Assembly: GCA_963718615.1 (NCBI GenBank)
Contig: OY970368.1
Coordinates: 1,344,001 to 1,408,000 of the forward strand
Origin: an uncultured cyanobacterium
GTDB lineage: Bacteria; Cyanobacteriota; Cyanobacteriia; PCC-9006; JAAUQQ01
Reading direction: 5' to 3'
DNA length: 64,000 bases
Made by a program: the position numbers and the translations under genes. Shown here piece after piece: positions 1,008 through 34,712 of the stretch. How positions within the stretch are numbered: the stretch's first letter is position 1; each line of letters opens with the position of its first letter. The notes beneath the pieces are model-generated. The model saw only the letters and a program-made list of their open reading frames with translations, made no database searches and had not been told where the DNA came from.

Positions 1008-4000
1008 ATGTCACTTTTGCTTAATCCCATTGGAACCTACGCCAGCGGCGCATTTGATCAAGGCGCAGCGGAGATCAATGCGTTTGATCCCCTTTCTCAG
1101 CGTTTGTTTGTGGTGAATGCCCAGACGGTAACCGTCGATATTTTAGATTTGAGTGACCCGACTCTTCCCACTAAACTGGGCACCATTGATGCGACGTCCT
1201 ATGGGGGCGTGGCCAATAGCGTGGCCGTGAAAAATGGAATAATTGCCGTTGCGATCGAAGCCAATACCAAGACCGATCCAGGGCAAGTGGTGTTTTTCGA
1301 AGCCAGCACCGGTAATTTTCTAAAGGCTATCACCGTCGGGGCTTTGCCCGATATGGTGACGTTTACGCCGGATGGAACCAAGGTTTTGGTGGCCAACGAA
1401 GGCGAGCCAGGATCTATGGATCCCGTGGGTTCAATCAGTATTATTGATTTATCCTCGGGCGTCGCCAGCGCGACGGTTCAAACCGCTGGGTTTGACAATT
1501 TTATCGGACAGGAAGCCAGCTTGCGAAGTCAGGGCGTGCGGATCTTCCCCAATAAAACCGCTGCTGAGGACTTCGAACCCGAGTATATTTCGGTTTCGCC
1601 CGATGGAACCAAGGCGTTTGTCACGCTACAGGAAAACAATGCGGTTGCTGTAGTCGATATTGCCAGCGCCACGGTGACGGAGATTCAGCCCCTCGGCACG
1701 AAGGATCATAGCCAGCCCGGAAATGGGTTAGATGCGAGCGATCGCGACAACGCCATCAATATCGTCAACTGGCCAGTTTCGGGGTTGTATATGCCCGATG
1801 CGATCGCCAGCTTTTCCGCCAACGGCCAAACCTACTACATCACCGCCAACGAAGGGGATGCCCGCAATGAAGATGTCCGAGTCAAGGATTTGACGCTCGA
1901 TCCGACGGTTTTTTCCGATGCCGCCATTTTGCAGGAAGATGCCATTCTGGGTCGCCTGACGGTATCGAGTCTTGATGGAGATCCCGATGGCGATGGCGAT
2001 TACGATCAGCTGTATAGCTACGGTTCCCGCTCCTTCAGCATTTGGGATGCCTCGGGCAATCAGGTTTACGACAGCGGCGATGCCTTTGAGCGGATCACAG
2101 CGGAGCGTTTCCCGACCCACTTCAACGCCAGCAATACCAATACCACCTTGGATAACCGCAGCGATGATAAAGGGCCTGAACCAGAAGGCGTTACCCTGGG
2201 CCAAATTGACGGGCGGACCTATGCCTTTATCGGTCTAGAACGCATTGGCGGCGTCATGGTCTACGACGTCACTGACCCGGCAAAGGCAGCGTTCGTCGAC
2301 TATTTCAACAATCGTGATTTTAGTGAATCTCCAGAACTGGCGTCAGGGGTCTCGAACCCAGCAGCGTTGGATTCCGGTCCCGAAGGACTCACGTTTATCA
2401 GCGCCGAGGACAGCCCCAATGGCACGCCGTTGCTCGTGGTTTCCAATGAAATCAGCGGGACGACGACGGTTTACGAAGTCAAGCCCAAAACCTTTACTCT
2501 ACAACTGCTCCATGCTTCGGACCAGGAAGGTGGAATTGCGGCCTTGGACGATGCACCGAATTTTTCAGCGGTGCTCAATGCCCTCGCGAACCAGGATCAG
2601 GATGGCGACGGTAACGCCGACTATGTCAACACCCTGCGACTGTCCTCAGGGGATGCTTATATTCCTGGCCTGTTTCTTGATGCTTCGGCGGATCCTTCCC
2701 TTGCGCCCTTGTTGGGAGCAACAGGTAAAGGTCGGGCGGATATTTTGATTCAAAATGAGTTGGGATTTGAGGCGATCGCCTTCGGCAACCACGAATTCGA
2801 CCTGGGCACCGGCCTAGTTCAATCGGTGCTCACAGCGGATGGCAACTATCCCGGCGCTGCCTTTCCCTATCTCAGTTCCAACCTCAACTTTAGACCCGAT
2901 GCCAACCTTGCGCCCTTGGTGACTCTCGATGGTCAAGAAGCCAGCACGATTCCCGGCAAAATTGCCAAGAGTGCGATCGTCACGGTCAACGGTGAACCCA
3001 TCGGGATTGTCGGCGCAACCACGCCAACCCTAGGCACCATCTCTAGCCCTGGCGATGTTGGTGTTAGCCCTTTTCCCTTTGGCGGCTCTCCTAGTTCCGC
3101 TGAACTCGATGCCTTGGCCGCAGAGATTCAGACCACGGTCGATGCTCTATTGGCTGCAAATCCGGCGTTGAACAAAGTGATTTTGTTGGCCCACATGCAG
3201 CAGATTGGCATTGAACAGGAGTTGGCTCAGCGCCTGCGCAATGTCGATATCATTATGGCGGGTGGCTCGAATACGCGCTTGGTGGATAGTGATGATCGCC
3301 TTCGGGCCGGGGACACGGCTCAAGGGGTTTATCCGATTGTTCAAACCGATGCTGATGGCAAGCCGGTGGCGATCGTCAACACCGATGGCAATTACAAATA
3401 TGTCGGTCGGTTGGTGATTGACTTTGATGCCAACGGCAATATCATTCCCGAAAGCTATAACCCCAGCATCAGCGGAGCCTATGCAACGGATGCCGCAGGC
3501 GTTGCCGCAGTCGGAGGAACTCCAGACCCGGAAATCGTCGCCATTACCGATGCCCTGCGAGAGGTCATTACCCGTCTTGATAGCAACTTCTTTGGGGTCA
3601 CCGATGTTTTTCTCAATGGCAATCGGGCCGGGGGCGGTACCGATGGGGTGCGCAATCAGGAGACCAATTTGGGAAATTTAACCGCCGATGCGAATTTGGC
3701 GATCGCCCAACAAGTCGACCCCACCGTTGTGATTTCCCTCAAAAATGGCGGCGGTGTCCGCGCCAGCATTGGCCGCATCGAAACCCCAACCGGAGCCGTG
3801 GAGCCGGAGCGGCTCCCCCCCGCAGGCAATGACCTCACCGGCAAGCCCGAAGGTGGGATTTCGCAAATCGATGTACAGAATACGCTGGCGTTCAACAATG
3901 GGTTGAGTTTGGTCACCGTCACCGCAGTGGAGCTCAGGACGTTAATTGAGTACGGCATTGCGGCCAGTACCCTAGACCCGGCCAGTGCTGAAGGGCGTTT

Positions 4001-6746
4001 TCCCCAGGTGTCTGGGTTTTCCTTTAGCTTTGATTTGAGTCAACCGGAAGGGCCACGGATTCAGTCCCTGGCGATCGAAGATCCGACAGGAAAAGACCTC
4101 GATGTGGTAGTCCGCGATGGCCAAATTGTGGGTGATCCAAGCCGAACTTTTCGGATGGTCACCCTGGATTTCTTGGCGAGCGGTGGCGATGGTTATCCAT
4201 TCGAGACCTTGGCTAATCCAAATCGCCTTGACATCACTGCGGCGGCAGCGGATCCGAAAACCGGCACGGCTACGTTTGCGCCAGATCATTCGGAACAGGA
4301 TGCCTTGGCGGAATACTTAGCCGCCAACTTTACTGAGGCCAATCCCTACGATCGCCTCGACACTCCCCGCGAATTGGATACCCGCATCCAAAACTTAGCC
4401 TTCCGCAACGATCTCGTACTCGATACTCCCACAATCACCAAAATCCACACCATTCAGGGCAATGCCACAACCCAAACCAGCGGCGGAGCCCATGATGACG
4501 TCAGCCCGCTCAATGGCCAAACGGTCACCCTCGAAGGGGTTGTCGTTGCGGGTTTTCAAAACGGGGATCAGCTCCGGGGCTTTTTCCTACAGGAAGAAAC
4601 CGCCGACCAGGACAGCGACAGCAGCACCTCCGAAGGCATCTTTATCTTTACCGGCAATAGTCCCCTGTTGGATGTGCAAGAGGGACAAAAGATTCGGATC
4701 ACGGGTAAAGTCAGCGAGTTTTTCGGAATGACCCAGATCGATGCTACAGCAACGGGTAGCGCCATCAGTCTCGTCGATAGCGGCAATAACATCGGCCAAG
4801 TAACAACAGCAACCTTGGCGTTGCCCGTGACGGGCGATCTGGATGACTACTACGAACAGTTTGAAGGCATGCGGGTGCAGTTCGCCGACAAACTCTATGT
4901 GTCGGAATACTTTGAAGTGGCACGCTATGGGCAAATTGTGTTGACGGAAGGCGATCGCCCCTTCCAATACACCCACCTCGACGACACCCCCACGGCAGCG
5001 GAGTTCACCGCCTTCCAGGAAAACTTGGCTCGACAGCGAATCATTCTGGACGATGACAACAATCTCCAGAATCCTCCCCTCCCCGATGGCACCTTCTTCT
5101 ATCCCCAGCCCGATGGATTGAGTACGGGTAGCCAAGGCAGCGACTTCTTCCGAGGGGGCGATAGTATCAGCAACTTAACCGGTATTTTACACTGGTCCTT
5201 TGCGGGACAGAGCGGCACCGATGCTTGGCGAGTTCGACCGACGGAGGCCAGTCCGGTTGTCTTTACACCAGAGAACCTACGCCCCGAAACACCCGAGGCC
5301 GTGGGTGGCAATCTCAAGGTCGCCAGCTTCAACGTGCTGAACTATTTCACCAGTATCGACGATGGCAGCAACACTGCTGGACCCAATGGCGACCAGGAAG
5401 GCCGAGGTGCCGACAGTGCCGATGAGCTCACCCGCCAAACCCAGAAGCTGGTGCAGGCGCTCAAGGGCATTGATGCAGATATCTTCGGCTTGGTTGAGCT
5501 GGAAAACAATGGCGGAGATGCCGATGGTGGTGCGATTCAGGCAGTTGTGGATGCCCTGAATGCCGAGGTTGGAGCCGGGACCTACGACTCCATTAAGACT
5601 GGGGACGTGGGCACTGATGCGATTACCGTCGGGTTCATTTACAAGGCTAGCGTTGTGGCCCCCAAGGGGAATTTTGCGGTTCTGGATGATCCAGCGTTTA
5701 CCGATCCAAATGGAACAGGGACCCCGCGAAATCGACCGGCGATCGCCCAAACCTTCGAGGTCATCGATCCCAACAATCCTGATTTTGGCGAGGCCCTAAC
5801 GGTCGTCAACAACCACTTTAAATCCAAGGGGGCTTCTGGCCTGACGGCAGGAGGTTCAGAACCCGACGCGGACCAAGGCGATGGCCAAGGCTTCTGGAAT
5901 GACACCCGTGCCAAAGCGGCGACCTATCTGGCTCAGACCTGGCTGCCCAGCGATCCCACAGGCCAAGGGGATGAGGATTTTCTGATTATTGGCGACCTCA
6001 ATTCCTATCGCGGTGAAGCACCGATTACCGCGTTCAAAAATGCAGGCTATACGGATTTGGCCGCGAGCCTCATCGGCGACGATGCCTATAGCTATGTGTT
6101 CAATGGCCAACTGGGTTATCTGGACTATGCCCTCTCCAGTCCAACGCTAACGCCCCAGGTTACTGGCATCACCGAATGGCATATTAACGCCGACGAAGTG
6201 CCGGTGTTTGACTACAACAACACCCTCGACGACGGGGCGGGAGAAGCCAGCTTTGAAGCTAAACCCACGGGCAACAATCTCTTTGAGGTCAATGCCTTCC
6301 GGACTTCGGACCATGATCCAGTGATTATCGGTCTTGACCTGGGCAGCGCCATCACCGAGATTCTCGGAACCGACCAGCGGGAAACCCTGACCGGCAGTGC
6401 TGGCCCAGACCGAATGATTGGCAACGGCGGCACGGATCAGCTCACGGGCAATGGCGGGGCCGATGAATTTGTCTACCGCAAGTTAGGCGATGGTCGCGAT
6501 ACGATTACCGACTTTACACCCGGTGAGGATAGATTGGTGTTGACGGAGTTATTTGCCGGTTCTGAGTTGGATTATGCGGGGGCGATCGCCAACCAATACC
6601 TCAGTTTCGGCAGCCGCAATGGCGATAGTTATGTGTTGGTGGATTTGGATGGTGCTGCTGGCAATCAGAATCGACCGATCGCGATCGCCGTTCTCCAAGG
6701 GGTTGCCCAAGAAGCCTTAGCGGACAGTCGTAATTTCATTCTCTAG
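1008..6746 (+). CDS. Secreted multi-enzyme: atypical alkaline phosphatase (choice-of-anchor I propeller) + 5'-nucleotidase (UshA-like) + ExeM/NucH-type endonuclease + RTX/type I secretion tail
   Basis: Phosphatase motifs ANEGEP, ANEGDAR, RSDDKGPEPEG. Metallophosphoesterase motifs LLHASDQE, SGDAYIPG, FGNHEFD, RNQETNLGNL, NGGGVRASI. EEP nuclease motifs ASFNVLNYF, NHFKSKG, IGDLNSY, RTSDHDPV. C-terminal GNGGTDQLTGNGGAD repeats. Likely start ATG 1008; no Sec signal visible. Confidence 0.9.
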   Translation: MSLLLNPIGTYASGAFDQGAAEINAFDPLSQRLFVVNAQTVTVDILDLSDPTLPTKLGTIDATSYGGVANSVAVKNGIIAVAIEANTKTDPGQVVFFEASTGNFLKAITVGALPDMVTFTPDGTKVLVANEGEPGSMDPVGSISIIDLSSGVASATVQTAGFDNFIGQEASLRSQGVRIFPNKTAAEDFEPEYISVSPDGTKAFVTLQENNAVAVVDIASATVTEIQPLGTKDHSQPGNGLDASDRDNAINIVNWPVSGLYMPDAIASFSANGQTYYITANEGDARNEDVRVKDLTLDPTVFSDAAILQEDAILGRLTVSSLDGDPDGDGDYDQLYSYGSRSFSIWDASGNQVYDSGDAFERITAERFPTHFNASNTNTTLDNRSDDKGPEPEGVTLGQIDGRTYAFIGLERIGGVMVYDVTDPAKAAFVDYFNNRDFSESPELASGVSNPAALDSGPEGLTFISAEDSPNGTPLLVVSNEISGTTTVYEVKPKTFTLQLLHASDQEGGIAALDDAPNFSAVLNALANQDQDGDGNADYVNTLRLSSGDAYIPGLFLDASADPSLAPLLGATGKGRADILIQNELGFEAIAFGNHEFDLGTGLVQSVLTADGNYPGAAFPYLSSNLNFRPDANLAPLVTLDGQEASTIPGKIAKSAIVTVNGEPIGIVGATTPTLGTISSPGDVGVSPFPFGGSPSSAELDALAAEIQTTVDALLAANPALNKVILLAHMQQIGIEQELAQRLRNVDIIMAGGSNTRLVDSDDRLRAGDTAQGVYPIVQTDADGKPVAIVNTDGNYKYVGRLVIDFDANGNIIPESYNPSISGAYATDAAGVAAVGGTPDPEIVAITDALREVITRLDSNFFGVTDVFLNGNRAGGGTDGVRNQETNLGNLTADANLAIAQQVDPTVVISLKNGGGVRASIGRIETPTGAVEPERLPPAGNDLTGKPEGGISQIDVQNTLAFNNGLSLVTVTAVELRTLIEYGIAASTLDPASAEGRFPQVSGFSFSFDLSQPEGPRIQSLAIEDPTGKDLDVVVRDGQIVGDPSRTFRMVTLDFLASGGDGYPFETLANPNRLDITAAAADPKTGTATFAPDHSEQDALAEYLAANFTEANPYDRLDTPRELDTRIQNLAFRNDLVLDTPTITKIHTIQGNATTQTSGGAHDDVSPLNGQTVTLEGVVVAGFQNGDQLRGFFLQEETADQDSDSSTSEGIFIFTGNSPLLDVQEGQKIRITGKVSEFFGMTQIDATATGSAISLVDSGNNIGQVTTATLALPVTGDLDDYYEQFEGMRVQFADKLYVSEYFEVARYGQIVLTEGDRPFQYTHLDDTPTAAEFTAFQENLARQRIILDDDNNLQNPPLPDGTFFYPQPDGLSTGSQGSDFFRGGDSISNLTGILHWSFAGQSGTDAWRVRPTEASPVVFTPENLRPETPEAVGGNLKVASFNVLNYFTSIDDGSNTAGPNGDQEGRGADSADELTRQTQKLVQALKGIDADIFGLVELENNGGDADGGAIQAVVDALNAEVGAGTYDSIKTGDVGTDAITVGFIYKASVVAPKGNFAVLDDPAFTDPNGTGTPRNRPAIAQTFEVIDPNNPDFGEALTVVNNHFKSKGASGLTAGGSEPDADQGDGQGFWNDTRAKAATYLAQTWLPSDPTGQGDEDFLIIGDLNSYRGEAPITAFKNAGYTDLAASLIGDDAYSYVFNGQLGYLDYALSSPTLTPQVTGITEWHINADEVPVFDYNNTLDDGAGEASFEAKPTGNNLFEVNAFRTSDHDPVIIGLDLGSAITEILGTDQRETLTGSAGPDRMIGNGGTDQLTGNGGADEFVYRKLGDGRDTITDFTPGEDRLVLTELFAGSELDYAGAIANQYLSFGSRNGDSYVLVDLDGAAGNQNRPIAIAVLQGVAQEALADSRNFIL

Positions 6747-10357: not shown

Positions 10358-10532
10358 CAATTCCTTTAAGGTTATGGCGGAAAATCTATTAAACTCTTTT
10401 TATCTTTTCGCTTGCGATGGTCTCTTACTTCGCATTAGTGCATTTTGTGTGTCTACATCATTTAGATTCAAAACGAGGATAAACGCTGCCGAAATGTAGC
10501 GGACTCAGGGAGCATGTTGGAATAGCAAGAGC

Positions 10533-13500
10533 ATGGAATTAGATTTGGACGTTGCTTGGCTAGTCGGTTGTGCGGGACTGGTCTTTATGATGCAGCCCGG
10601 ATTCATGTGTCTAGAGTCTGGGCTGACGCGTTCGAAAAACAGCATCAATGTGGCAGTCAAAAATCTGACGGATTTTGCCATTTCCGTGATGGTTTTTTGG
10701 CTATTTGGCTACGGCCTGCTGTTTGGGACCTCGCTGGGAGGCTGGATCGGGGGGGCGGGGTTTGTGCCGGAACTGTCGGATTCGGCGCGGCTGGCGGCGT
10801 TTTTTCTGTTTGAGGCGATGTTCTGCGGCACCGCTACGACGATTGTGTCCGGTGCGATCTCCGAGCGGATGCGCTACAGCGTTTATTTGGTGATCTGTTT
10901 AATTATTTCTGGGTTGATTTATCCCCTGTTTGGTCATTGGGCTTGGAATGGGATTGAAGCGGGTATTGCGGGGGGATGGTTGCGATCGCTCGGTTTCCTA
11001 GATTTCGCTGGCTCCACAGTGGTGCACAGCATCGGTGGCTGGGTCTCCCTGGCAGCACTCCTCGTCATCGGTCCCCGCATCGGTCGGTATAGCGAAGGCC
11101 GCGTCAACGAGCTCAATCGCTCCAGTCTACCCCTGTCGGTGCTCGGAACCATGCTCCTGTGGTTGGGCTGGATGGGGTTCAATGGCGGCAGCACACTGGC
11201 GTTTAACGACCAAATCCCCCGCGTGATTGTCCAAACCATTTTGGCCGGGTCGTCAGGGCTACTCTCGGCGGTGGCCTTGGGCTGGTCGCGGCGCAAGCTG
11301 CCCCAGGTGGAGGTGATGATCAATGGTTCCCTGGGGGGCCTGGTCTCAATTACGGCGGGCTGCAATGCCGTCTCAACGCCCCATGCAGCTTTAATTGGGG
11401 CCATAGGCGGCGTTGTCATGCTCTTGGCGACGGATCTGATGAACCGCTGTCGCATTGACGATGGCGTAGATGCGGTGGCCATCCATGGGTTTTGCGGCGT
11501 TTGGGGCACGCTAGCGGTGGCGCTGTTTGGGGATTTGGAGATTTTAGGGACGGGGTTGTCGCGGCATCAACAGGTAGCCGTGCAGTTGTTTGGCAGTGGC
11601 GTGGCGTTTGTTTGGGCCTTTGGGATGAGTTATCTCCTGCTCTGGGGACTCAATCGGCTCACACCGCTGCGGGTCTCAGCGGAGGAGGAAGAGCTGGGCC
11701 TCAATGTCTCGGAACATGGGGCCAAAACGGAGCTGTACGACCTCTTTCGGGTGATGGATGACCAGGCGCAGACGGGAAATTTTAGCCTGCGGGTGCCGGA
11801 AGTGCCCTATACGGAAGTGGGAAAAATTGCCTATCGCTATAACCAGGTGATGGCGACGGTGGAGTCCTATGCCAAACGGCTACAACGGTTTAACAACCGC
11901 CTCGAACGCAAAGTTGCGGAGCGAACCTCAGAACTGGCTCAAGCCAATGCAGAACTGACGCGGCTCCATACGGTCAAAGACCAGTTTTTAGCGAACACCT
12001 CCCATGAATTGCGCACCCCCCTCCACGGCATTATTGGCCTAGCGGAATCCATGCTCGACGGCTCAACGGGGCTGTTGTCGGTGGCCCAACAGCAAAATTT
12101 GTCGTTGATTGCCCAGAGCGGTCGGCGATTGGCCCATTTGGTCAATGATATTTTGGATTTTTCGCAATTGAAGCGCGATCGCTTGCAAATTCATCCCGGT
12201 AGCGTCGATCTGCATACCGTTGTGGATTTAATTCTGACCATGACCGAGGCCACCATCGGAAAAAAAAACGTTGCCCTTAGGAACCAAGTGCCCCCCGGAC
12301 TGCCACCGGTTTGGGCCGATGCCAATCGGTTGCAGCAGATCCTCTATAACCTAGTGGGAAACGGCATTAAATTTACGAATTCTGGGGCTGTGACCGTTTC
12401 GGCGCAGCGGAGAGCGGATCGGATTGAGGTGGCGATCGCCGACACCGGCATCGGTATTCCTGCCGACCAACACAGCCGTATTTTTGAATCCTTTGAACAG
12501 GGGGATGGCACAACCGCTCGCCGCTACGGGGGAACCGGCTTGGGATTGGCCGTAACCCAACAGTTGGTGCTCCTCCATGGGGGCGAACTCACTGTGGAAT
12601 CAACGGTAGGTGTAGGTTCAACCTTTCGGTTTTCATTGTCCATTAGTCAAGGGGTACCGGAACCCATATTGCCCAGCGCCCTAGCCCCCGCCCCCCCTCT
12701 AAGCAGTGCCTTCGCCAACGCTCTGGATTATCCCGATGCCTTAGAAATTTTGGCGGAGGCGGAGTTGGCGGCGGTGCAACAAAATGGCCGTCGTTTCAAG
12801 ATTTTGGTTGTTGACGATGAGCCGGTTAATTTACAGGTGTTGGTCAACCAACTGAGTCTAGAAAACTACGAAATTATTCAGGCCATGAGTGGGTTTGAAG
12901 CCCTGGAGATCATTGAGCAGGGGCTACAGCCAGATCTGATTTTGCTCGATGTGATGATGCCGCGCATGACGGGCTATGAGGTCTGCCACCGGCTGCGGGA
13001 GCGCTTTCCGGCCAACGAGTTGCCGATTCTGATGTTGACGGCCAAATCTCAATTGGCCGATATTGTCGAAGGCTTCCAGGAAGGAGCCAATGACTATTTG
13101 AATAAGCCCATTCAAAAACAGGAACTGCTGGCGCGTATGCGCACCCATTTGTATTTATCCAATCTCAATATTGCCTGTAGCCGATTTGTACCACGCCAAT
13201 TTTTACAGATCCTCAATAAGGAAAGCATTTTAGATGTGACCGTTGGCGATCAAATTCGTCAGGAAATGTCGATTTTGTTCTCCGATATCCGTGACTTCAC
13301 AACCCTAAGCGAACAGATGACGCCCGAAGACAACTTTCGGTTTATTAATGGCTATTTGTCGCGCATGGAACCTGCGATCGTGGAGAACCAAGGCTTTATT
13401 GACAAGTATATTGGTGATGCAATTATGGCGTTATTTGAGGAAGGGGCCGATGACGCGGTGCGGGCGGCGATCGCCATGCTTCAAACCCTTGAGGCTTATA

Positions 13501-13991
13501 ATCGCGATCGCCAAGCCCTAAACCGCACGCCGTTACGCATTGGCATCGGCATCAATACAGGCGATCTGATGCTCGGTACCGTCGGGGGACAAAGTCGGAT
13601 TGACGGCACGGTGATTGGCGATGTGGTGAATTTGGCCTCGCGTATGGAAGGTTTAACAAAGCGGTATCGGGTTCCTTTACTCATTAGTGAATCGACGTTC
13701 ACTCGGTTACAGGATGTGAGTGATTATGCCGTTCGGAAAATTGATCGGGTGCAGGTGAAGGGCAAGTCGGAATGGGTGTCGGTGTATGAGGTGTTTGAGG
13801 CAGATGCGCCGCAGTTGCGGATGAAGAAGTTGCGATCGCAAGTCAAATTTGAGGCGGCGATCGCGACATTCCATGAGGGGAGTTATGGTCAAGCGCAGGC
13901 GCAATTTAGCCAATATTTGGTCGAGAATTCGGCGGATTCGGTGGCGCAGGTTTATCTAGAGCGATGTGAGCAGGCGATCGCGGTGCTGTGA
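10533..13991 (+). CDS. Ammonium transporter-histidine kinase-receiver-class III adenylate cyclase fusion
   Basis: Amt: GFMCLESG, DFAGSTVVH, WMGFNGGS, DDGVDAVAIHG. HAMP-like linker. HisKA SHELRTPL. HATPase NLVGNGIKF, DTGIGI, GGTGLGL. REC ILVVDDE, LLDVMMP, YLNKP. Cyclase FSDIRDFT, DKYIGDAIM, TVIGDVVNLASRME. Confidence 0.92.
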   Translation: MELDLDVAWLVGCAGLVFMMQPGFMCLESGLTRSKNSINVAVKNLTDFAISVMVFWLFGYGLLFGTSLGGWIGGAGFVPELSDSARLAAFFLFEAMFCGTATTIVSGAISERMRYSVYLVICLIISGLIYPLFGHWAWNGIEAGIAGGWLRSLGFLDFAGSTVVHSIGGWVSLAALLVIGPRIGRYSEGRVNELNRSSLPLSVLGTMLLWLGWMGFNGGSTLAFNDQIPRVIVQTILAGSSGLLSAVALGWSRRKLPQVEVMINGSLGGLVSITAGCNAVSTPHAALIGAIGGVVMLLATDLMNRCRIDDGVDAVAIHGFCGVWGTLAVALFGDLEILGTGLSRHQQVAVQLFGSGVAFVWAFGMSYLLLWGLNRLTPLRVSAEEEELGLNVSEHGAKTELYDLFRVMDDQAQTGNFSLRVPEVPYTEVGKIAYRYNQVMATVESYAKRLQRFNNRLERKVAERTSELAQANAELTRLHTVKDQFLANTSHELRTPLHGIIGLAESMLDGSTGLLSVAQQQNLSLIAQSGRRLAHLVNDILDFSQLKRDRLQIHPGSVDLHTVVDLILTMTEATIGKKNVALRNQVPPGLPPVWADANRLQQILYNLVGNGIKFTNSGAVTVSAQRRADRIEVAIADTGIGIPADQHSRIFESFEQGDGTTARRYGGTGLGLAVTQQLVLLHGGELTVESTVGVGSTFRFSLSISQGVPEPILPSALAPAPPLSSAFANALDYPDALEILAEAELAAVQQNGRRFKILVVDDEPVNLQVLVNQLSLENYEIIQAMSGFEALEIIEQGLQPDLILLDVMMPRMTGYEVCHRLRERFPANELPILMLTAKSQLADIVEGFQEGANDYLNKPIQKQELLARMRTHLYLSNLNIACSRFVPRQFLQILNKESILDVTVGDQIRQEMSILFSDIRDFTTLSEQMTPEDNFRFINGYLSRMEPAIVENQGFIDKYIGDAIMALFEEGADDAVRAAIAMLQTLEAYNRDRQALNRTPLRIGIGINTGDLMLGTVGGQSRIDGTVIGDVVNLASRMEGLTKRYRVPLLISESTFTRLQDVSDYAVRKIDRVQVKGKSEWVSVYEVFEADAPQLRMKKLRSQVKFEAAIATFHEGSYGQAQAQFSQYLVENSADSVAQVYLERCEQAIAVL

Positions 13992-14046
13992 ACTACGATG
14001 AACCATTTTGTTTTAGGGGGTTTGTCTGTGTGTTTGTATGGCAACG

Positions 14047-14838
14047 CTAAAGGCTATCGGGATCAACTCCAAGCTCTCGAAGTTTTTGGGCTAAACGTTC
14101 AGCGCGTTGGGCTTCTTGCTCGGCGCATTGGGCTTCTTGAGCGGCGTACTGGGTTGCTTGGTGCGCTTTTTCTTCCTGAGTGGGGATCAGGGTATCGTCG
14201 AGGTTTGCCCAGCGAAGCCAAGTCGCTGTAACAGTGTGATAAATACCACTCCAGCGAACTAGCTTGAGGCCCAAACTGGGACTGAGGATGCTGCCATCTG
14301 GGGCGATGGGTAGAGGCTGATAGTGAGCATTTTGTAGGGTAAAACCAGCCCAATCTTCGGGGTTGAAGGGGTCGTACCAAAATTATTCTGAAATGCGCAT
14401 TTGGTTCTGATAAATATCGCGTTTTATGGTTTTATCTGCTGTGGCGGTGCTGTTGGAGAGGAGTTCAATCACGAGGTCTGGACTTTTTCCTTCTTCCCAC
14501 ACAACCCAGCTTAGACGCTCTTTCGGATCGACATCCAGGGCAATAAAGAAGTCAGGGCCTCGATAATCGCGATTCCTCACTTGTTCAAGGCTGAAATAGA
14601 CGAACATGTTACCGCTGACGTAGCTATTGGGGCGATGGAGACTGAGCCAAGTGTGGGCGGTTTCGATGAGCAGATCCCTCTGAAGCTTGTGACGCTGAGT
14701 TTCCATAGGAATATCATCACAACAGGGGAGGTCGTATTGGGTGGGAGGCAGTGAGGTCAGTCCCTCGGGTAACTCAATGGGAGGTGAGGGGGTGAAGGGG
14801 GTTGCAGTGGGACTGGTGGTGGGGTTGAGACCTGTCAT
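14047..14838 (-). pseudogene. Uma2 (DUF820) family nuclease-fold protein, disrupted
   Basis: Uma2 motifs PMETQRH, GPDFF, SWVVWEEGKSPDLVIELLS. An in-frame TAA at 14383-14385 reads RISE*FWYDP (normally EYFWYDP). A 1-bp deletion near 14300 shifts the frame to DGSILSPSLGLKLVRW...KLRELGVDP. Confidence 0.85.
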
Positions 14839-15046
14839 GGGATTTCCTGGCGATAAACCTTGAAATTGAACCTTGTGCCTACATGTCGCTATTGTAATGG
14901 ATTGGGTTGAGGCGATCTCAACGGGCGTAGATTAGCCATTCGAGGAATACAGATGTGTAGTGTCTAGGACAGAGGAAGATAAAGGTTCAAAGCGTTAGTT
15001 GACCCAAGCGAGTCGAAGAACGACAAGATGGTTGAAGCCGTCCTCA

Positions 15047-15784
15047 TTACTTCTTAATCGCAGTTAAGCGGATATTAAAGGCTAAAAATTTTGGATAAGA
15101 AATACCACTTTCCCAAGCTCTAAAACGGTTTAAATTTTGATGTATTCTTTGAGGCAGAAGATGCATTCGGGAGTCTATCGCAAGTATCCAAGTAAAGAAA
15201 GGCATAAACAAACCACAGTACTGCACTTTGGAAAGTGTAAACCTTTCTCCTAAAAGATTCTGTACTTCAGTGAAAGAAACATGTTTATGCCCTAATTCAA
15301 CTGGATCACTCGGAACATATCCACTGATCTTCATATAAAAACGGTAAATTCTAGAGAATCGACGTTTGAAATCCATTGGATCAGCCCAAGCAAATGCTCC
15401 TTGATAGGGAGCTGTAAAAATAAATAAACCACCTTTCTTTAAGACTCTATAAGACTCATTGATGACCAATTGTTTATTTTCATCTCCAACATGTTCAATG
15501 ACATCGGACAGCACTACTACATCAAATTCTTCACTTGGATAAGGCAAAGTTGCTGCAGTTTGATGTACTAAATTTAAATAAGGATAATTAACTGCTGCTT
15601 GCTTAAGGGCTTCCTCATGCATATCAATTCCATAAAGAGCTTTTGATTTGTCTTGTAGCTTGGCTAATGTCCATCCAAACGAGCATCCAACATCTAGAAT
15701 TTTGTTTACAGGAGTCTCAATCGAGTCGAGCACAAAGTCACTCCGATCGCCACCTAGATTTTTAAGACCAAGTATGAGCAACAT
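15047..15784 (-). CDS. Class I SAM-dependent methyltransferase
   Basis: ILDVGCSFG motif I, FDVVVLSDVIEHV, RVLKKGG. Likely start ATG 15784 after AAGGAAGG. Confidence 0.85.
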   Translation of the reverse strand: MLLILGLKNLGGDRSDFVLDSIETPVNKILDVGCSFGWTLAKLQDKSKALYGIDMHEEALKQAAVNYPYLNLVHQTAATLPYPSEEFDVVVLSDVIEHVGDENKQLVINESYRVLKKGGLFIFTAPYQGAFAWADPMDFKRRFSRIYRFYMKISGYVPSDPVELGHKHVSFTEVQNLLGERFTLSKVQYCGLFMPFFTWILAIDSRMHLLPQRIHQNLNRFRAWESGISYPKFLAFNIRLTAIKK

Positions 15785-15860
15785 GTAATACCTTCCTTTT
15801 CTACAAAACAACACTGTAATGACTAACTGTAACAATTTAGCTCTGAAGAACTTGCTGTGC

Positions 15861-16949
15861 TTACACACATATCCTCTGAAGAGCATGAGAGACTCGTTCT
15901 GATAAAAATTTATAATCAAAGGTCTTGATAGCAACTTGACATGCTTGATCTTTGGTTTTTGAAAACTGATTTTTTTCTATAAGCCAATCTAGTTCTTTTG
16001 CCAACCGTAGGGGATAATTCTCATCTTTTACCCCGTTGTAAGGCAAAAGGCTACCAATACCAGGTAATACATTCTTAGCTTCTCCTACATCTGTTGCAAT
16101 TACATATTTACCATAGGCTAAATACAAGGGTAGTTTCCCTGTTGTCCTAACCATGCCGACTAAATCATTAGATTGTGTAGAGATACAAATATCCATCGTA
16201 GCCAAGTACTTAGGAAGCTCAGAATACGAAACTTGACCAATAAACTTGAGTTTGCTTATAACTCCTAATTCTTTTGCTCGCTCCTCTAGAATTTTTCTAC
16301 CATTTCCATCTCCTACCAAAAGACCCATTATTGGTTTTTCTTTCAGGAAAGCCAACGCTTCAACAATATCCCAGCCATAGCACATTTGATAGCGCTCAGA
16401 CCAAGACATAGTTCCAATCATGCCAACAACAACTTGTTTTTCTAAGCCCAGTTCTGCCTTTACTACATTACTTTCAGGCTTAATAATATTACTAGTGACT
16501 ACTCCATCTGGAACAAATTCAACATTTTCTATACCCTGACCTTTCAGAAAATCCTTATGATAACTACCACGAACAATTAATAAATTAGAGTGATGGATTG
16601 CTAGATTCTCAATGAAGCTAATCAACTTTAGCTGTAGTGTAGAATAATTTCCCGTAGACTTGGCAAGCTCAAAGGCTACATCTCCTGTGTCAACGACTAG
16701 TTTACAGCGAAGCAATATCTTGACTAAGTACCCCGCTAGAACTCCTGCATAGGCGGTGTCCATTACATAAACAACATCTGGTCTAAATTTTAGACTAGAA
16801 AAAATAAATCGCCCAATACTCTTCCATTTAGGTATTCCTCTATATTCGAATAAAATTTTCCAGTGGGATGGGAAAAATTTGGAGAATGTTTGTGCTCTTA
16901 TCCCTGCTGAACTGGACTGAGAACCATTGATGAGAAAGATTATTTTCAT
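15861..16949 (-). CDS. Glycosyltransferase (GT4-like, GT-B fold)
   Basis: LLVGDGNGR, FIGQVSY, KLPLYLAYGKYVIATDVGE. Confidence 0.85.
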   Translation of the reverse strand: MKIIFLINGSQSSSAGIRAQTFSKFFPSHWKILFEYRGIPKWKSIGRFIFSSLKFRPDVVYVMDTAYAGVLAGYLVKILLRCKLVVDTGDVAFELAKSTGNYSTLQLKLISFIENLAIHHSNLLIVRGSYHKDFLKGQGIENVEFVPDGVVTSNIIKPESNVVKAELGLEKQVVVGMIGTMSWSERYQMCYGWDIVEALAFLKEKPIMGLLVGDGNGRKILEERAKELGVISKLKFIGQVSYSELPKYLATMDICISTQSNDLVGMVRTTGKLPLYLAYGKYVIATDVGEAKNVLPGIGSLLPYNGVKDENYPLRLAKELDWLIEKNQFSKTKDQACQVAIKTFDYKFLSERVSHALQRICV

Positions 16950-17027
16950 AGAGATAAATTAAAATATAATTATATTACGTGCTCTGAAAAGTGTCTCTAG
17001 TTCAAGACTTTAGCAAGATGTTATAAA

Positions 17028-17474
17028 CTATCTCTCCACATGGTTGTTAATAGGTCGTGCGGGTACACCCACAACGATTTGTCCAGGTAAAACGTTTTTA
17101 GTAACAACAGCACCAGCACCTACAATGGCTCCTTCTCCTATAATAAGGTCTTTGTTCTCTCTACTTACTATTGTTGCATTTGCCCCAATAGTTACGCCAT
17201 CATGAATAATAATTCTATAAGGGGAACCAATCCATGTTGATGTGGCTAGGGTCACCCTATGAAAAATAGTGACTTTTTTACCGATTTTCACATTGGGATG
17301 AATAACAACTCCTAAAGCAAAGTGTGCTAGGCAAATATCATCTTCAAAATCAGCCTCATAGGGCAACACCGCATGAAAAATGAGAAAGATAAGTGCTTTT
17401 ATTATTTTGGCGATTAACTTGAGATTATGCCTATAAGCAAGAGAACTGAGTTTCCAGAAAAATACAGGTTTCAT
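17028..17474 (-). CDS. Hexapeptide-repeat (serine O-acetyltransferase/WcaB-like) acetyltransferase
   Basis: HFALGVVIHPNVKIG, IGEGAIVGAGAVVTKNV, VGVPAR. Confidence 0.85.
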   Translation of the reverse strand: MKPVFFWKLSSLAYRHNLKLIAKIIKALIFLIFHAVLPYEADFEDDICLAHFALGVVIHPNVKIGKKVTIFHRVTLATSTWIGSPYRIIIHDGVTIGANATIVSRENKDLIIGEGAIVGAGAVVTKNVLPGQIVVGVPARPINNHVER

Positions 17475-17679
17475 GTATGAGCAGCAAATAACTTAGTTGA
17501 CTTTGCTAGGATGAAAAAATGAGTATTTGACTGATGCAAGACCCAGTCCTAGAAGTACACAAAACGGAATTCTACTAATTTAATCTTTAGTTATTGTTGC
17601 CTTAACAACGATCGTAAAAGATGCTTACTCGCTAAATATTTCGTATTTCATCGTAGTAAAAACTCCATACTTTCTCATC

Positions 17680-18750
17680 TTATTTATTAAACTCTAAGAC
17701 TGCTTGCTCATAAAATTTCTCATGAGTTATAGCAATATTTTTCCAAGAGAAAAGAAATGCACGTCTCAATCCCTTTTCTTCTAGATAACACCGCTTTTCT
17801 GAGTCTTTCAATAAGTCGATAATTGCCTGAGAGAATAATTCATCGGTTTTCATCATGCCGTACTCTCCATCTGCCAAAACATGTTCCGCTCCTTCATTTG
17901 GAGACGATACTATTGCGACTCCACTTGCAAGAGCTTCTAAATAAGGAATGCCAAACCCTTCGTATATACTAGGATAGGCAAAGATCCACGAGCTACGAAA
18001 TAAGACTGCCAGCTCTTGATCAGAAGGAAAACGAATATATGTTACATTGGGGTGTAAAGGACAATAATCAGACACCATATATAGCTGAGCAGCTGGAAAG
18101 CTCAATAGTATTTCTTCTACAAATTGCTGAAAAATAAACTTTCCTCTTTTACGTCCCTCCCATGTTCCAACAAACAGAATGGATGGAAATGTTGTTTTTT
18201 TACCGGGATAAAATACGGTTAAGTCAACGCCATTGTCAACGGTAGCTCTAGTATTGTATATTTTTTTGGTCTCTTTACCGATCGCAAGGGTTAAGGTTGA
18301 CAATCTTTTAGAGAAATGCTCTAAGCGATAGATTAAATACTGTGAGATTCTGCGTTTCAGCGATGTACTTGAATTAGCTTCCTTTAAAGCTGAGCCATGC
18401 ATTGTCCTTACTGTTGCTCTCTGACGATTCCAGAAAAACCAATCGTCTCCATGTAAATGAATAACGTCAAACTCCCTGAAATCTATAAAATTAAGCAGTA
18501 AGGGAAATAAAACTAGTCTTGCTATTCTTTTGAAATTACATGAGTCAAGGTAGGGGAATATATGAACATGGTTATATTTTGCATCTGGTGGGCATGATGT
18601 AGGACTAAAAACAGTTACTTCATTGCTCAAGGAAACTTCTACCAACGAATTGGCAAGACGGTGGATAGCAAAATCAACTCCGCCTATTTTTCGGTTAGAT
18701 TCAGGTACATGTAAGTCGGGTAATGAGCTAGCTATTATTGCGATTTTCAT
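17680..18750 (-). CDS. Glycosyltransferase family 4
   Basis: GGVD near the N-terminus, PSIYEGFGIPYLEALASG (E-X7-E). Likely start ATG 18750. Confidence 0.9.
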   Translation of the reverse strand: MKIAIIASSLPDLHVPESNRKIGGVDFAIHRLANSLVEVSLSNEVTVFSPTSCPPDAKYNHVHIFPYLDSCNFKRIARLVLFPLLLNFIDFREFDVIHLHGDDWFFWNRQRATVRTMHGSALKEANSSTSLKRRISQYLIYRLEHFSKRLSTLTLAIGKETKKIYNTRATVDNGVDLTVFYPGKKTTFPSILFVGTWEGRKRGKFIFQQFVEEILLSFPAAQLYMVSDYCPLHPNVTYIRFPSDQELAVLFRSSWIFAYPSIYEGFGIPYLEALASGVAIVSSPNEGAEHVLADGEYGMMKTDELFSQAIIDLLKDSEKRCYLEEKGLRRAFLFSWKNIAITHEKFYEQAVLEFNK

Positions 18751-18934
18751 GGTATGCAAATAAAATCTAGAAGAGAAATAACTAATATAATATCCGTTCA
18801 ATAAGTCTTGGAATTACTGACCTCAAACCCTTATGGAACAAAGAGCGGTTGTTCTATGAATTTCTTGGACTCTATATAACTAACTAAAACATTCAATACC
18901 TGTCTGCATAACTAAAATTAGACTCATGAAGTGA

Positions 18935-20047
18935 TTATATAAGTAGCTCTTGTACAGAAATAATAAATTGACTAGCATATTTTTCAGCAGAGAAATCTTG
19001 AGCTCGAATCAACGCATTGTAACCAACTTCGCTCATTAGAGATGGATGATCTAAATAGTTTAATATTGCTTTTTGTAAGCTCTTTACATCAGAATAAGGA
19101 ATAAGCGTTCCATAAAGATTCGAATCTATAATTTCTTTTGGACCTCCCTCATTAGTCGCAATAACTGGTTTACCCATTGCCATCGCTTCTACAATGACTA
19201 AACCAAAGGGTTCGTTCTTAGAAGCATGAATAACAATATCCATGGCATGCATCCACTCTTGAACATTTGTTTGTTGGCCAACCATGATAACTCGTTCAGA
19301 AATATTATATTTACAAACCAAGGATTTTAAATAATCTGTATATTCAGCCTCTAAGTCATGCTTTCCTCCTACAATAAGACAGTACGCAGAAGGATATTTC
19401 TCCAGAACAAAGGGCATTGCTTGAATTAAGACATGAATTCCTTTCCAGTGTTGCAACCTACCAACAATGCCGATAATAGGCACATCAGTAGGTAATTTGA
19501 GCTTTGTGCGTGTGTTTACCACACTTGTAAAAGCCTGTTTGTTAAATACTTCAAGATTGATTCCCGGTCTAACAACTCGGGTTGATCGATGTGGAAAAAA
19601 CTTTTGCTGCTCAATACTAGTTTCTCTCGAAACATTTAACACGCCTTTTGACGGTAAAAACGAGCTAAATCTATGAAGAAAACTCCCTAAGTCGGGATTA
19701 TCATGATTGTACCAGATCGATGGTACTCGTGCGATAAAGGACGCTATCCCAGCATATAAATGGGCTTTTGTTGCCCAACTTACTACTACATCTACATTTT
19801 CTTCTTTAAATAGGAAAGCCAATCGAAATACGGTTTGGCAAAACAAAAATACATTTCTTAGGCGGCCACTTTCTATAATCTCAGTCCTGACATGTAAACA
19901 GGTTATCTGATCACATAAGGTTCCGCTCTTTAAGAAAATTACTAGCCACTCATGTTGTTTGCACGAAACTTGTCTTAATAAATTGACGAGAGCAATTTCT
20001 GCTCCTCCCTTTTGCTCAGCAAAAGGTACTACGATAGCGATTTTCAT
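18935..20047 (-). CDS. Glycosyltransferase family 4
   Basis: GGAE, VGRLQHWKG, EPFGLVIVEAMAMGKPVI. Confidence 0.92.
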   Translation of the reverse strand: MKIAIVVPFAEQKGGAEIALVNLLRQVSCKQHEWLVIFLKSGTLCDQITCLHVRTEIIESGRLRNVFLFCQTVFRLAFLFKEENVDVVVSWATKAHLYAGIASFIARVPSIWYNHDNPDLGSFLHRFSSFLPSKGVLNVSRETSIEQQKFFPHRSTRVVRPGINLEVFNKQAFTSVVNTRTKLKLPTDVPIIGIVGRLQHWKGIHVLIQAMPFVLEKYPSAYCLIVGGKHDLEAEYTDYLKSLVCKYNISERVIMVGQQTNVQEWMHAMDIVIHASKNEPFGLVIVEAMAMGKPVIATNEGGPKEIIDSNLYGTLIPYSDVKSLQKAILNYLDHPSLMSEVGYNALIRAQDFSAEKYASQFIISVQELLI

Positions 20048-20053
20048 TATATT

Positions 20054-21484
20054 TCAACCTTGAAGATTGTACTTTTCTTGATTGCTACGATATTTATAGC
20101 CAGCAATAGCAAGACCAGAAATGCCCCAAAATAGAACACTAGGAAGTAAGATAAACATATTATTGCTAGAAAGAGTGGAAAACATTCCTACACTAGACAT
20201 TATAGAGGCCAGGATAAATGAATCTTTCCTATACTTCAGACACTGATTTAAAGTATAGAATATCAAGAAAATAGCACAAACATAGGGTGCTAGTCCTATC
20301 CATCCCAATATAGCTAACGGTTCGAGAAGGCCTGCGTCAACGGTGCCTGCTCCTCCCATACCTCGACCGATAACTTCAGATACGATTTGATTCAGTAAAT
20401 CTGCATAAATTCTTTGTCTAACTAATAGGCTACCGTCACTACCTACATTTAAAAATGTTTGTATTCTTTCTAAGACAGTATCTGTAAAATTTGAATTGAA
20501 TAAAAGAGGAGATGAAAACAAAAGACCGAGAAATATATTTCTAATCATGAACGATTTAACACGAAAATTGGAGAATATAAAAACACCAATAAAAGTTAAT
20601 CCCCAACCAAGCCATGCAGCTCGGACAAGAGATAAAAGAAAGGATATAAAACCAGGTAATATTGCCAAGATTGAGAATTTTCTATAATTTGAAAATACAA
20701 ATGTTAATGTTGTAATCATAGTTACAGAAAAAACCATAGGAGTGTTTACAGTACTCCAAACCCTTAACATATAAGGCTCTGGCCATCCGATAGAACTCTG
20801 AAGGTTGGGGGAGTTGTTCCACCAAAATACATCCCAAGCGGGAGCAAAAGCATACTGGTACATACCATATGCTCCCATTACAAGCGTCGCCCAGAAAAAG
20901 ACATCCTGAGTTATTTTCATATGAATTGGATAGTTTCTCCAATTCATATTTAAGTAGAATCCAATACTGATCGCTGGAAACCACATCAACACGCCTCTGC
21001 CAATTTCTAATAACGAGTATTCTCTTAAAAATCCCACGATAAAAGCATAAAGAATGGATGTAGTGGCCAACATATAAGGCAGTCCATCTTTTTTAACAAA
21101 CTGAGGCCCATAACGAAAAAGATATTCTGTGCAAACAAAAGAAACCAAGTATGGTGAAAGAATTATCATTTTAAACTCTCCACCAGAAGTTCCACTCTGA
21201 TATTCGACAATCCTAGAGACTAATGGTGATAAAAACCAAATCCACCAATTAAAGCCAATATAGAGAGATGGATATTTTGAATACAAAAATACTGCAATTA
21301 TGAAGCTTCCGGCAGGGAAAGCCAATTGAAGTATTTGACTTACATGTAATAAGATAGAGGAAATTATAAGTATTAAAAATACAAATATTAATGACCATGC
21401 CGTAGCTGGTTTTGGAATTAAAGAAAGTGTTTTTATGATTTTTCTTTTCTTTTTTCCTAGCATTGAACTTGAAACTGGATTCAT
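20054..21484 (-). CDS. Polytopic membrane protein, O-antigen ligase/Wzy polymerase-like
   Basis: About 11 hydrophobic segments, LSLVRAAWLG, periplasmic loop DGSLLVR..GRGMG, located inside a GT cluster. Confidence 0.75.
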   Translation of the reverse strand: MNPVSSSMLGKKKRKIIKTLSLIPKPATAWSLIFVFLILIISSILLHVSQILQLAFPAGSFIIAVFLYSKYPSLYIGFNWWIWFLSPLVSRIVEYQSGTSGGEFKMIILSPYLVSFVCTEYLFRYGPQFVKKDGLPYMLATTSILYAFIVGFLREYSLLEIGRGVLMWFPAISIGFYLNMNWRNYPIHMKITQDVFFWATLVMGAYGMYQYAFAPAWDVFWWNNSPNLQSSIGWPEPYMLRVWSTVNTPMVFSVTMITTLTFVFSNYRKFSILAILPGFISFLLSLVRAAWLGWGLTFIGVFIFSNFRVKSFMIRNIFLGLLFSSPLLFNSNFTDTVLERIQTFLNVGSDGSLLVRQRIYADLLNQIVSEVIGRGMGGAGTVDAGLLEPLAILGWIGLAPYVCAIFLIFYTLNQCLKYRKDSFILASIMSSVGMFSTLSSNNMFILLPSVLFWGISGLAIAGYKYRSNQEKYNLQG

Positions 21485-34703: not shown

Positions 34704-34712
34704 CAAAATAAG

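Follow-up and report, generated by a model that had tools for sequence, protein, structure and literature searches.

A predicted cyanobacterial ammonium receptor carrying a hybrid histidine kinase and a class IIIb adenylate cyclase in one chain

One gene encoding an Amt-kinase-receiver-cyclase protein

The stretch of DNA analysed here, which we call the window, comprises 64,000 nucleotides from an uncultured cyanobacterium (NCBI GenBank assembly GCA_963718615.1, contig OY970368.1, positions 1,344,001 to 1,408,000 of the forward strand), and all coordinates below are counted from its first letter. Our subject is a single gene at 10533..13991 (+), an uninterrupted open reading frame (ORF) that starts with ATG and encodes 1152 amino acids plus a stop codon. 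Its product, P0001, is predicted to join an Amt-like receptor, a hybrid histidine kinase (HK) and a class IIIb adenylate cyclase. Five domains are recognised by Pfam, ordered as follows: Ammonium_transp (PF00909; residues 8-398, E 5.9e-118, 394.5 bits against a cut-off of 23.2, covering profile positions 1-397 of 399), HisKA (PF00512; residues 482-547, E 2.7e-19), HATPase_c (PF02518; residues 596-703, E 2.2e-29) and Response_reg (PF00072; residues 757-869, E 1.2e-29), these three all above their cut-offs, and Guanylate_cyc (residues 909-1081, E 2.2e-21), so that the last four families form a transducer fused C-terminal to Amt. The NCBIfam model TIGR00836 'amt' matches with 403.6 bits (cut-off 343.3), and with the NCBIfam equivalog models, both those of AmtB and those of named hybrid kinases, the protein scores far under the cut-offs. 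The single ORF and the order of its domains bear out the first-pass annotation of this DNA, which had read an ammonium channel, histidine kinase, receiver (REC) and cyclase in one protein; the catalytic and pore motifs that it quoted as intact (STVVH, AIHG, DFAG, SHELRTP, LLDVMMP and DKYIGD) could all be located. By all testable features, P0001 is a full-length match to the Amt/Mep/Rh family (PF00909, TIGR00836) joined to a HisKA hybrid kinase and a class IIIb cyclase.

The Amt module (residues 8-398; 10554..11726, +), delimited by Pfam, NCBIfam and alignment to solved Amt proteins, carries the twin histidines H165 (STVVH) and H318 (AIHG), the conserved aspartate D157 (DFAG) and, as placed by alignment to Sd-Amt1 of Shewanella denitrificans, a vestibule formed by W138/S220 and a phenylalanine gate formed by F97/F216; the matching pore residues in Sd-Amt1 are W139, S225, F98/F221 and H169/H323. 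This pore signature of Trp/Ser, Phe gate, twin His and Asp is kept in 30-32 of 32 family members. Here and below, the family was sampled as the 120 best database clusters, conservation counts come from 32 aligned members with all five domains, and mean identities come from 30. A crude hydropathy scan finds about ten separate hydrophobic stretches, all within residues 1-373, and alignment to the 11-helix Sd-Amt1 fold implies an eleventh helix. Among solved structures Sd-Amt1 is the best match (8qj3; E 1.9e-119, 403 bits), with an alignment that spans residues 8-472, that is, the Amt module and the juxtamembrane linker behind it. The sensor Ks-Amt5 follows (E 2.6e-89, 304 bits), ahead of the transporters Af-Amt1 (E 1.6e-59, 205 bits) and E. 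coli AmtB (E about 1e-40, 142 bits).

The residues that distinguish receptors from transporters point the same way. In Sd-Amt1, a lateral pocket for two ammonium ions (N1/N2) is described as built from E29, N45, D48, T104 and S107, with Q22 near; K44/Y119 act as a switch, F25 replaces the channel-wall Tyr of transporters, and N269 narrows the cytoplasmic exit where transporters have Ser (PMC11152129). In the alignment P0001 is identical at every one of these positions: Q21, F24, E28, K43, N44, D47, T103, S106, Y118 and N264. Ks-Amt5 shares Glu, Asn, Asp and Thr at the E28, N44, D47 and T103 columns, and has Arg, Asn and Thr at those of K43, Y118 and N264. Af-Amt1, by comparison, has Tyr, Leu, Ser, Ser and Ala at the columns of E28, K43, N44, D47 and T103, Ser (S251) at that of N264, and Val, Val and Thr at those of Q21, F24 and S106, and E. 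coli AmtB has Tyr, Gln, Val, Thr and Ser at the columns of E28, K43, N44, D47 and N264. The receptor-site and switch residues are kept in all 32 five-domain members, except S106 (31/32) and N264 (25/32). By every feature that sequence can test, the module is thus of receptor type, in the ammonium receptor (AmR) class of Sd-Amt1 and Ks-Amt5, and the case for ammonium as its predicted input is strengthened by the complete N1/N2 residue set, since the solved transporters differ at the columns read.

The same residues must be weighed against the alternative that the Amt module still imports ammonium, the attached modules either reporting flux or acting in reverse, with the cytoplasmic relay controlling uptake in the manner of an in-built GlnK. 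P0001 has every pore residue of a true transporter (W138, S220, F97/F216, H165/H318), there is no adjacent glnK, and only 25 of the 32 members have N264. Moreover, the cluster of proteins with the N1/N2 residues is reported to hold characterised, transport-competent plant AMT1 proteins (PMC11152129), and for this reason those residues speak for an ammonium-binding site and not against transport. On the other hand, the P0001 module is much nearer to Sd-Amt1 and Ks-Amt5 than to the transporters, and those two proteins are described as giving binding-type transients or as having lost net transport, not as supporting steady transport. The outputs fused to this Amt lineage are those of classical signalling (GGDEF/EAL, HK, PP2C, MCP), and we know of no mechanism by which a cyclase could gate a pore. 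We consider a transporting or uptake-regulating role for P0001 to be rather improbable.

Behind the Amt module lies a two-helix, HAMP-like juxtamembrane linker (residues 399-450; 11727..11882, +), defined by its alignment to Sd-Amt1. It pairs without gaps with Sd-Amt1 residues ~403-453, and the whole HMMER alignment, up to query residue 472, has one 2-residue gap; the authors of the Sd-Amt1 structure called residues 404-450 of that protein a HAMP domain from an AlphaFold model (PMC11152129). Mean identity to the P0001 linker within the family is 64%, which makes it as conserved as the catalytic domains. We regard it as probably HAMP-like in function without classing it as a HAMP member. The same conserved linker also follows a receptor-type Amt in short cyanobacterial proteins of 500-610 amino acids (P0377-P0496) that end in a short tail only; many cyanobacteria have them, for example Acaryochloris marina, Synechocystis sp. 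LKSZ1, Geminocystis and Waterburya, and some entries are contig-end fragments. One of them (P0437) is 58% identical to P0001 over residues 5-445, that is, over Amt and linker. A weak Pfam HAMP match in some of the short tails sits downstream of the conserved linker. Such proteins may signal to separate partners.

A connecting helix (residues 451-481) and the HisKA/DHp domain (residues 482-547), together at 11883..12173 (+), lead into the kinase. Its predicted phospho-acceptor, H491 in the H-box SHELRTP, is kept in 31/32 members, and the N, G1, F and G2 boxes are visible in the translation of the HATPase_c catalytic, ATP-binding domain (residues 596-703; 12318..12641, +). The receiver (residues 757-869; 12801..13139, +) keeps its phospho-acceptor D806 (LLDVMMP) in 31/32 members and T836 also in 31/32, and K858 and P859 are at least 90% conserved; D761/D762, T836 and K858 complete the conserved set of acidic pocket, Thr and Lys. 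Between kinase and receiver runs a variable stretch rich in Pro and Ala (residues 704-752; 12642..12788, +) with a mean identity of 14%, against 62-70% for the functional modules, as one would expect if working domains were joined by a flexible tether. The linker from receiver to cyclase (residues 870-908; 13140..13256, +) has 63% mean identity. With all DHp, ATP-box and receiver residues in place, P0001 is by its residues a HisKA-type hybrid kinase; Pfam finds no Hpt domain in it.

The class III cyclase domain (residues 909-1081; 13257..13775, +), assigned from Pfam and its solved relatives, contains D918 (FSDIRDF), K958 and D962 (DKYIGD), T1026, and N1033 and R1037 (NLASR). We take D918 and D962 to bind metal, K958 to contact the substrate, and N1033 and R1037 to stabilise the transition state. 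D918, K958 and R1037 are kept in 31/32 members, and D962, T1026 and N1033 in 32/32. The best solved relatives are all of class IIIb: CyaB (3r5g, 2.6e-26), the photoactivated cyclase bPAC (5.3e-24), 2w01 (9.5e-24) and CyaC (1wc0, 4.7e-20), and also OaPAC. T1026 aligns with the substrate Thr of CyaB and bPAC, and replacement of the substrate-binding Asp by Thr is given as the hallmark of class IIIb (PMC2613629). The domain is thus a class IIIb cyclase by sequence and, from its Lys/Thr pair, predicted to be adenylate-specific; a guanylate cyclase identity was considered and rejected on account of that pair and of the class IIIb relatives. The alignment to bPAC begins upstream of the catalytic domain, with residue 883 of P0001 matching residue 127 of bPAC. 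A C-terminal tail (residues 1082-1152; 13776..13988, +) has a mean identity of 34% and no significant Pfam family; it is also found in other cyanobacterial cyclase cassettes, where the alignment reaches residue 1145.

A conserved family that exchanges its modules

The five-domain architecture is not peculiar to this contig. A search for the five Pfam families among the 120 best database clusters found all of them in 49, the query included, at 47-69% identity. The 16 of these 49 clusters that carry an organism name are all cyanobacterial and include Lusitaniella, Symploca, Leptolyngbya, Spirulina and bins. Within the family the functional modules are about equally conserved, at the mean identities given above, and the single exception behind the counts of 31/32 for the relay and cyclase residues is throughout the same degenerate member, P0114, which lacks H491, D806, D918 and K958 and has no Pfam receiver. 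This one decayed relative is all that speaks for the possibility that the P0001 gene is itself a chimeric assembly or a fusion of modules that no longer work. Against it stand the 49 independent clusters, which come from NCBI, ENA, JGI and Logan assemblies, the uninterrupted ORF with intact, conserved catalytic residues, and the even conservation across modules. Since some family members are carried on contigs measuring 2.7 Mb, 1.04 Mb and 0.54 Mb and the contig of P0001 itself is 6.1 Mb long, chimeric assembly can be excluded, and we reject both artefact and pseudogene, giving them a negligible chance of being correct.

Outputs other than the cyclase occur on the same Amt-linker-HK-REC core. 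Among the 120 best clusters an AAA_35 ATPase-like region takes its place in 34, and PAS_3 with a second kinase and receiver in 23; other variants carry PP2C/SpoIIE (P0117) or a PDE8A_N-like region (P0050), or end after the receiver. In an unrooted FastTree phylogeny of the core (residues 1-875; 118 rows, with P0110 and P0120 left out for being too short), a single starred branch sets 56 rows, namely the 49 cyclase proteins and 7 others, apart from 62 (34 AAA_35, 23 PAS_3-kinase, 5 others). The family thus swaps modules at two points, one behind the juxtamembrane linker and the other behind the receiver, a property that would be useful for understanding or engineering the way in which a trimeric sensor drives dimeric effectors. 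On the boldest reading of P0001, set out below and in our view improbable, the Amt-HK-REC core with its swapped outputs (cyclase, AAA_35, PP2C, second kinase) would constitute an unrecognised family of direct ammonium sensors.

The part of P0001 downstream of the linker is itself widely distributed. A dCache_1-HAMP-HK-REC-cyclase protein (P0132) is 57% identical to residues 450-1145 of P0001 in one block, and of the best 150 matches in an exhaustive search of 1.84 billion 50%-identity representatives, 110 match the HK-REC-cyclase part and 40 the Amt first. These two observations suggest that HK, receiver, cyclase and tail behave as a portable output unit, and the HK-REC-cyclase part is, judging from these matches, a common cyanobacterial output cassette. 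The cyclase part alone recurs at 60-66% identity behind CHASE2-PAS, dCache_1-HAMP-HK-REC, CHASE-HK-REC, Ser/Thr kinase-GAF, CBS and a lone receiver. Such promiscuity leaves scope for cross-talk and bears on a further alternative, in which the kinase of P0001 mainly serves separate response regulators or Hpt proteins, the receiver is fed by other kinases, or both, ammonium being one of several inputs. It is common for a hybrid kinase to feed a phosphorelay, some of the related Amt hybrids have an Hpt domain (P0252, P0268, P0282, P0306, P0318, P0321) or two to three receivers, and class IIIb cyclases are reported to respond also to inorganic carbon (PMC2613629). Such a branched network is nevertheless very unlikely in our judgement: kinase, receiver and cyclase are fused and co-conserved in 31/32 members, P0001 has no Hpt domain, and no response-regulator gene lies adjacent to its own.

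A further set of 80 loci was retrieved by Amt-domain patterns; they hold mostly non-cyanobacterial Amt sensors and one close relative of P0001 (L001, on a 3.9-kb contig). These loci contain 29 read-through ORFs of at least 600 amino acids, and 22 of the 29, long Amt fusions from other phyla, were surveyed for the output fused to Amt: GGDEF-EAL in 9, GGDEF in 3, kinase forms in 7, and one each with PP2C (SpoIIE; Pelagibacteraceae, L014:10001-12112), an MCP signalling domain (Roseibium aestuarii, L030:10001-12292) and PAS only. None of the 22 carries a cyclase, and a further 33 Amt-first representatives are all kinase forms, again with a cyclase in none. The Roseibium aestuarii fusion is a candidate ammonium chemoreceptor, and the PP2C phosphatase fusion belongs to genomes of SAR11 type. 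The nearest thing to the cyclase fusion outside the family is an unfused pair in a metagenome-assembled genome of Treponema sp. (L051:10808-14778; JAISNI010000052.1), in which a gene for an Amt-Hpt-HATPase_c protein of 936 amino acids is followed, with a 4-base overlap, by one for a PAS-Guanylate_cyc protein of 387 amino acids. We see in this pair another case, independent of the first and outside the cyanobacteria, of a sensor Amt kinase linked to a class III cyclase. P0001 itself brings two widely used modules together, in a combination observed in one family only.

Full-text searches, with figures and PDF supplements outside their scope, found no description of an Amt-adenylate cyclase fusion or of a cyanobacterial ammonium receptor, and neither adenylate cyclases nor cyanobacteria are mentioned in the main texts of the two AmR papers and a 2023 Amt review, or in one supplementary file of PMC11152129. 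Databases name the family automatically as 'ammonium transporter', and UniRef names it after a circadian kinase. The novelty that the first inspection of the sequence had left unconfirmed holds only in part: we too find no characterised four-module example, but the family is already in the databases and both of its halves are common modules. We conclude that the family is real, conserved and undescribed, yet built from known parts that lend it a presumptive function.

A proposed route from ammonium binding to cAMP synthesis

To our knowledge, only two ammonium receptors have been characterised so far. Ks-Amt5 is an Amt-HK and Sd-Amt1 an Amt-HAMP-diguanylate cyclase (PMC11152129, PMC5764959, PMC10433425), and these are the precedents in other phyla to which the first-pass annotation had alluded. 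Sd-Amt1 (8qj3, 8qj4, 8qpf; PMC11152129) resembles P0001 in its Amt module and linker, in its identical N1/N2 residues, Lys/Tyr switch and exit Asn, in the absence of a signal peptide and in the position of its transducer at the C-terminus. It differs in belonging to another phylum and in having a diguanylate cyclase directly after the HAMP helix, with cyclic di-GMP as output, whereas P0001 has a kinase, a receiver and a class IIIb cyclase and is predicted to make cyclic AMP (cAMP) by way of His-Asp phosphotransfer. NH4+ is reported to raise the kcat/KM of the Sd-Amt1 cyclase about tenfold (PMC11152129). Ks-Amt5, from 'Candidatus Kuenenia stuttgartiensis' (6eu6; PMC5764959), shares with P0001 the Amt receptor, the HisKA/HATPase kinase and the same N1/N2 set, but it has no HAMP-type linker, receiver or output enzyme, the latter two being in-chain in P0001, and it has Arg and Asn for the K43/Y118 pair and Thr at the N264 column. 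Its His phosphorylation is described as NH4+-responsive in the full-length protein only, and its response regulator as still unidentified (PMC5764959).

For the part downstream of the kinase a functional model is CyaC of Spirulina (Arthrospira) platensis and Anabaena, in which a kinase, a proximal receiver and a class IIIb cyclase likewise share a single chain. As the first reading of the sequence had stated, the kinase of CyaC switches on the cyclase by way of the proximal receiver (PMC3009899). CyaC is soluble, with an N-terminal receiver and GAF-GAF inputs and no membrane sensor; P0001 lacks those inputs, and among solved structures its cyclase is nearer to CyaB 3r5g and bPAC than to CyaC 1wc0. 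We therefore suggest that this part of P0001 works like CyaC without classing it as a member. Other cyanobacterial sensor-HK-REC-cyclase proteins (for instance P0132, P0136, P0151 and P0219) have the complete cassette in common with P0001, beginning with the helix that precedes HisKA and ending with the tail, but carry periplasmic dCache or CHASE inputs in place of the Amt fold. We know of no functional study of these dCache/CHASE-HK-REC-cyclase proteins, though we made no specific search for one. Adenylate cyclase R of Dictyostelium combines seven membrane-spanning helices, a histidine kinase, two receivers and a cyclase in one chain (PMC3009899); it is eukaryotic, its membrane part is not an Amt and it is not known to have ammonium-site residues, so that the likeness, taken from its description, is one of layout only.

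Taken together, these comparisons make it probable, in our view, that P0001 is an AmR-type receptor for ammonium in the membrane and that its phosphorelay controls how much cAMP is made. In this model external NH4+ would enter the Amt pore from the periplasm past W138/S220 and F97/F216, reach H165/H318 and occupy the lateral N1/N2 pocket (E28, N44, D47, T103, S106), with N264 narrowing the cytoplasmic exit. As in Sd-Amt1, binding would cause E28 and D47 to flip, K43 to be released and Y118 to move, and this would shift the two-helix linker and the Amt fold at its C-terminal end. Within the Amt trimer, two of the protomers might pair their linkers and DHp helices, H491 would be autophosphorylated, as in Ks-Amt5 at low ammonium, and the phosphoryl group would cross the flexible tether to D806; the phosphorylated receiver would then activate the homodimeric class IIIb cyclase as in CyaC, yielding cAMP from ATP. 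We infer ammonium binding, kinase coupling, the oligomeric arrangement and the downstream targets by analogy with the characterised proteins.

Several observations weigh against this proposal. Kinases of this type and class III cyclases dimerise, so a trimeric Amt would have to control dimeric kinase and cyclase units. No gene for a cAMP receptor, a CRP-type protein, PII or nitrogen assimilation adjoins the P0001 gene. The exit residue N264 is substituted in 7/32 family members and is Thr in Ks-Amt5, and the Amt module may still transport, the N1/N2 set not being exclusive to receptors. The linker, which the first-pass annotation had called HAMP-like, keeps that description insofar as it aligns with the HAMP segment of Sd-Amt1, but the Pfam HAMP model (PF00672) gives no match to residues 395-485 even at E<=10, and the HAMP label in Sd-Amt1 is itself a prediction. 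Finally, the response of Ks-Amt5 is reported to be biphasic, up at low NH4+ and down at high NH4+ (PMC5764959), and the sign of the response in P0001 therefore cannot be read from precedent.

The sign might indeed be the opposite of the one drawn above: ammonium could lower kinase activity or favour phosphatase activity, or the phosphorylated receiver could inhibit the cyclase, so that cAMP would rise when ammonium vanishes. The sequence of P0001 does not fix the sign, Ks-Amt5 phosphorylation is described as dropping again at higher NH4+, and older work reportedly saw cAMP rise on nitrogen step-down in Anabaena. Yet for the two AmRs characterised so far NH4+ is described as activating at first, and phosphorylation of the proximal receiver is reported to activate the cyclase of CyaC. 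We give the reversed sign an appreciable but minor chance, and favour, by analogy, a receptor in which ammonium raises cAMP.

Cyanobacteria are held to sense nitrogen indirectly, through the action of 2-oxoglutarate on PII and NtcA (PMC8042125). To this, a receptor in the membrane that reads external ammonium would contribute a direct nitrogen input and, as had been suggested from the first inspection of the sequence, we infer that this input would be independent of PII/NtcA; the two findings that bear on this, no NtcA-type box in the upstream spacer and no PII gene nearby, are both weak. The receptor would also tie nitrogen to cAMP, a molecule treated in cyanobacteria as a carbon and light signal; current work views it as a high-carbon signal sensed by SbtB (PMC10117731). 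As all prokaryotic IIIb cyclases tested are reported to respond to inorganic carbon (PMC2613629), the output of P0001 might, speculatively, combine carbon and nitrogen information. A bolder and, we think, improbable extension is that P0001 integrates carbon and nitrogen in one chain, with ammonium acting via receiver phosphorylation and inorganic carbon acting on the IIIb domain to set a single cAMP output that bypasses 2-oxoglutarate, PII and NtcA. In filamentous forms cAMP is reported to trigger trichome aggregation and mat formation (PMC2853384), and if such an integrator exists, the receptor could guide benthic filaments, through their gliding or aggregation, towards sources of ammonium. 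Since sensor, kinase, receiver and enzymatic read-out lie in one chain, the coupling of signal to output could be followed with a straightforward assay for cAMP or by screening for cya- complementation.

The locus and the rest of the window

On the same strand, the P0001 gene is preceded by genes for a SpoU-type methylase and for uvrC, from which it is separated by a spacer of 175 bp (10358..10532, +), presumably its promoter region. The box recognised by NtcA-type regulators, GTA-N8-TAC, is absent from this spacer, and of its seven matches in the window none falls between 10 and 14 kb, a weak negative; equally weak is the finding of no promoter-like match to the spacer in a consensus scan and no Rfam match at E<=1. 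A weak terminator-like hairpin (14143..14167, +) lies ~150 nt past the stop codon, and such sites are not commoner than expected (7 found, against 5.6 expected from shuffles). No PII domain was found in any neighbouring ORF that was scanned, in line with the earlier observation that glnK is not adjacent.

Downstream, on the opposite strand, the P0001 gene is followed by a Uma2 gene and then by a glycosyltransferase block of low GC content (14000-28000; GC 0.34-0.44, compared with some 0.55 in other parts), whose ORFs all lie on the minus strand. The block contains eight glycosyltransferase-family ORFs, two methyltransferases (of Methyltransf_11 and FkbM types) and a hexapeptide transferase, is flanked by Uma2-family genes at 14383-14838 and 27773-28540, and includes a 93-nt inverted repeat (23966-24058 and 27075-27167, 83% complementary). 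It looks like an acquired polysaccharide-synthesis island.

Elsewhere in the window, a 1927-amino-acid protein encoded at 963-6746 (+), in which a choice-of-anchor I domain occurs together with a 5'-nucleotidase C-terminal domain, is probably a large secreted or surface nucleotidase or phosphatase. The transaldolase encoded at 28941-30206 (-) carries two C-terminal EF-hand calcium-binding motifs, and a Na+/H+ exchanger (53297-55414, +) is fused to two universal-stress-protein domains. An isoaspartyl-peptidase/asparaginase-family gene (44853-45782, -) lies within 5 kb of a gene for an ArgZ-like arginine dihydrolase (49200-51314, +), a pairing that fits catabolism of cyanophycin or arginine nitrogen stores; between them, 47593-49199 is a 1.6-kb stretch with no ORF of at least 110 amino acids. 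At 59946-62372 (+) a FraC-family filament-integrity gene is followed by genes for a DUF5357 protein and an ABC-2 membrane protein, a run that we take to resemble the fraC-fraD-fraE operon. The fraC-like, ArgZ-like and Uma2 genes fit a filamentous cyanobacterium. No tRNA gene was found in the window, and its sole Rfam match is a 6S (SsrS) RNA gene at 34711-34894 (-), with 95.7 bits against a gathering score of 46.4. Finally, a 15-nt periodic array of about 10 copies with 70% matches (38283-38439) lies inside the gene for a pentapeptide-repeat protein (37848-38846) and is the DNA image of that protein's repeat.

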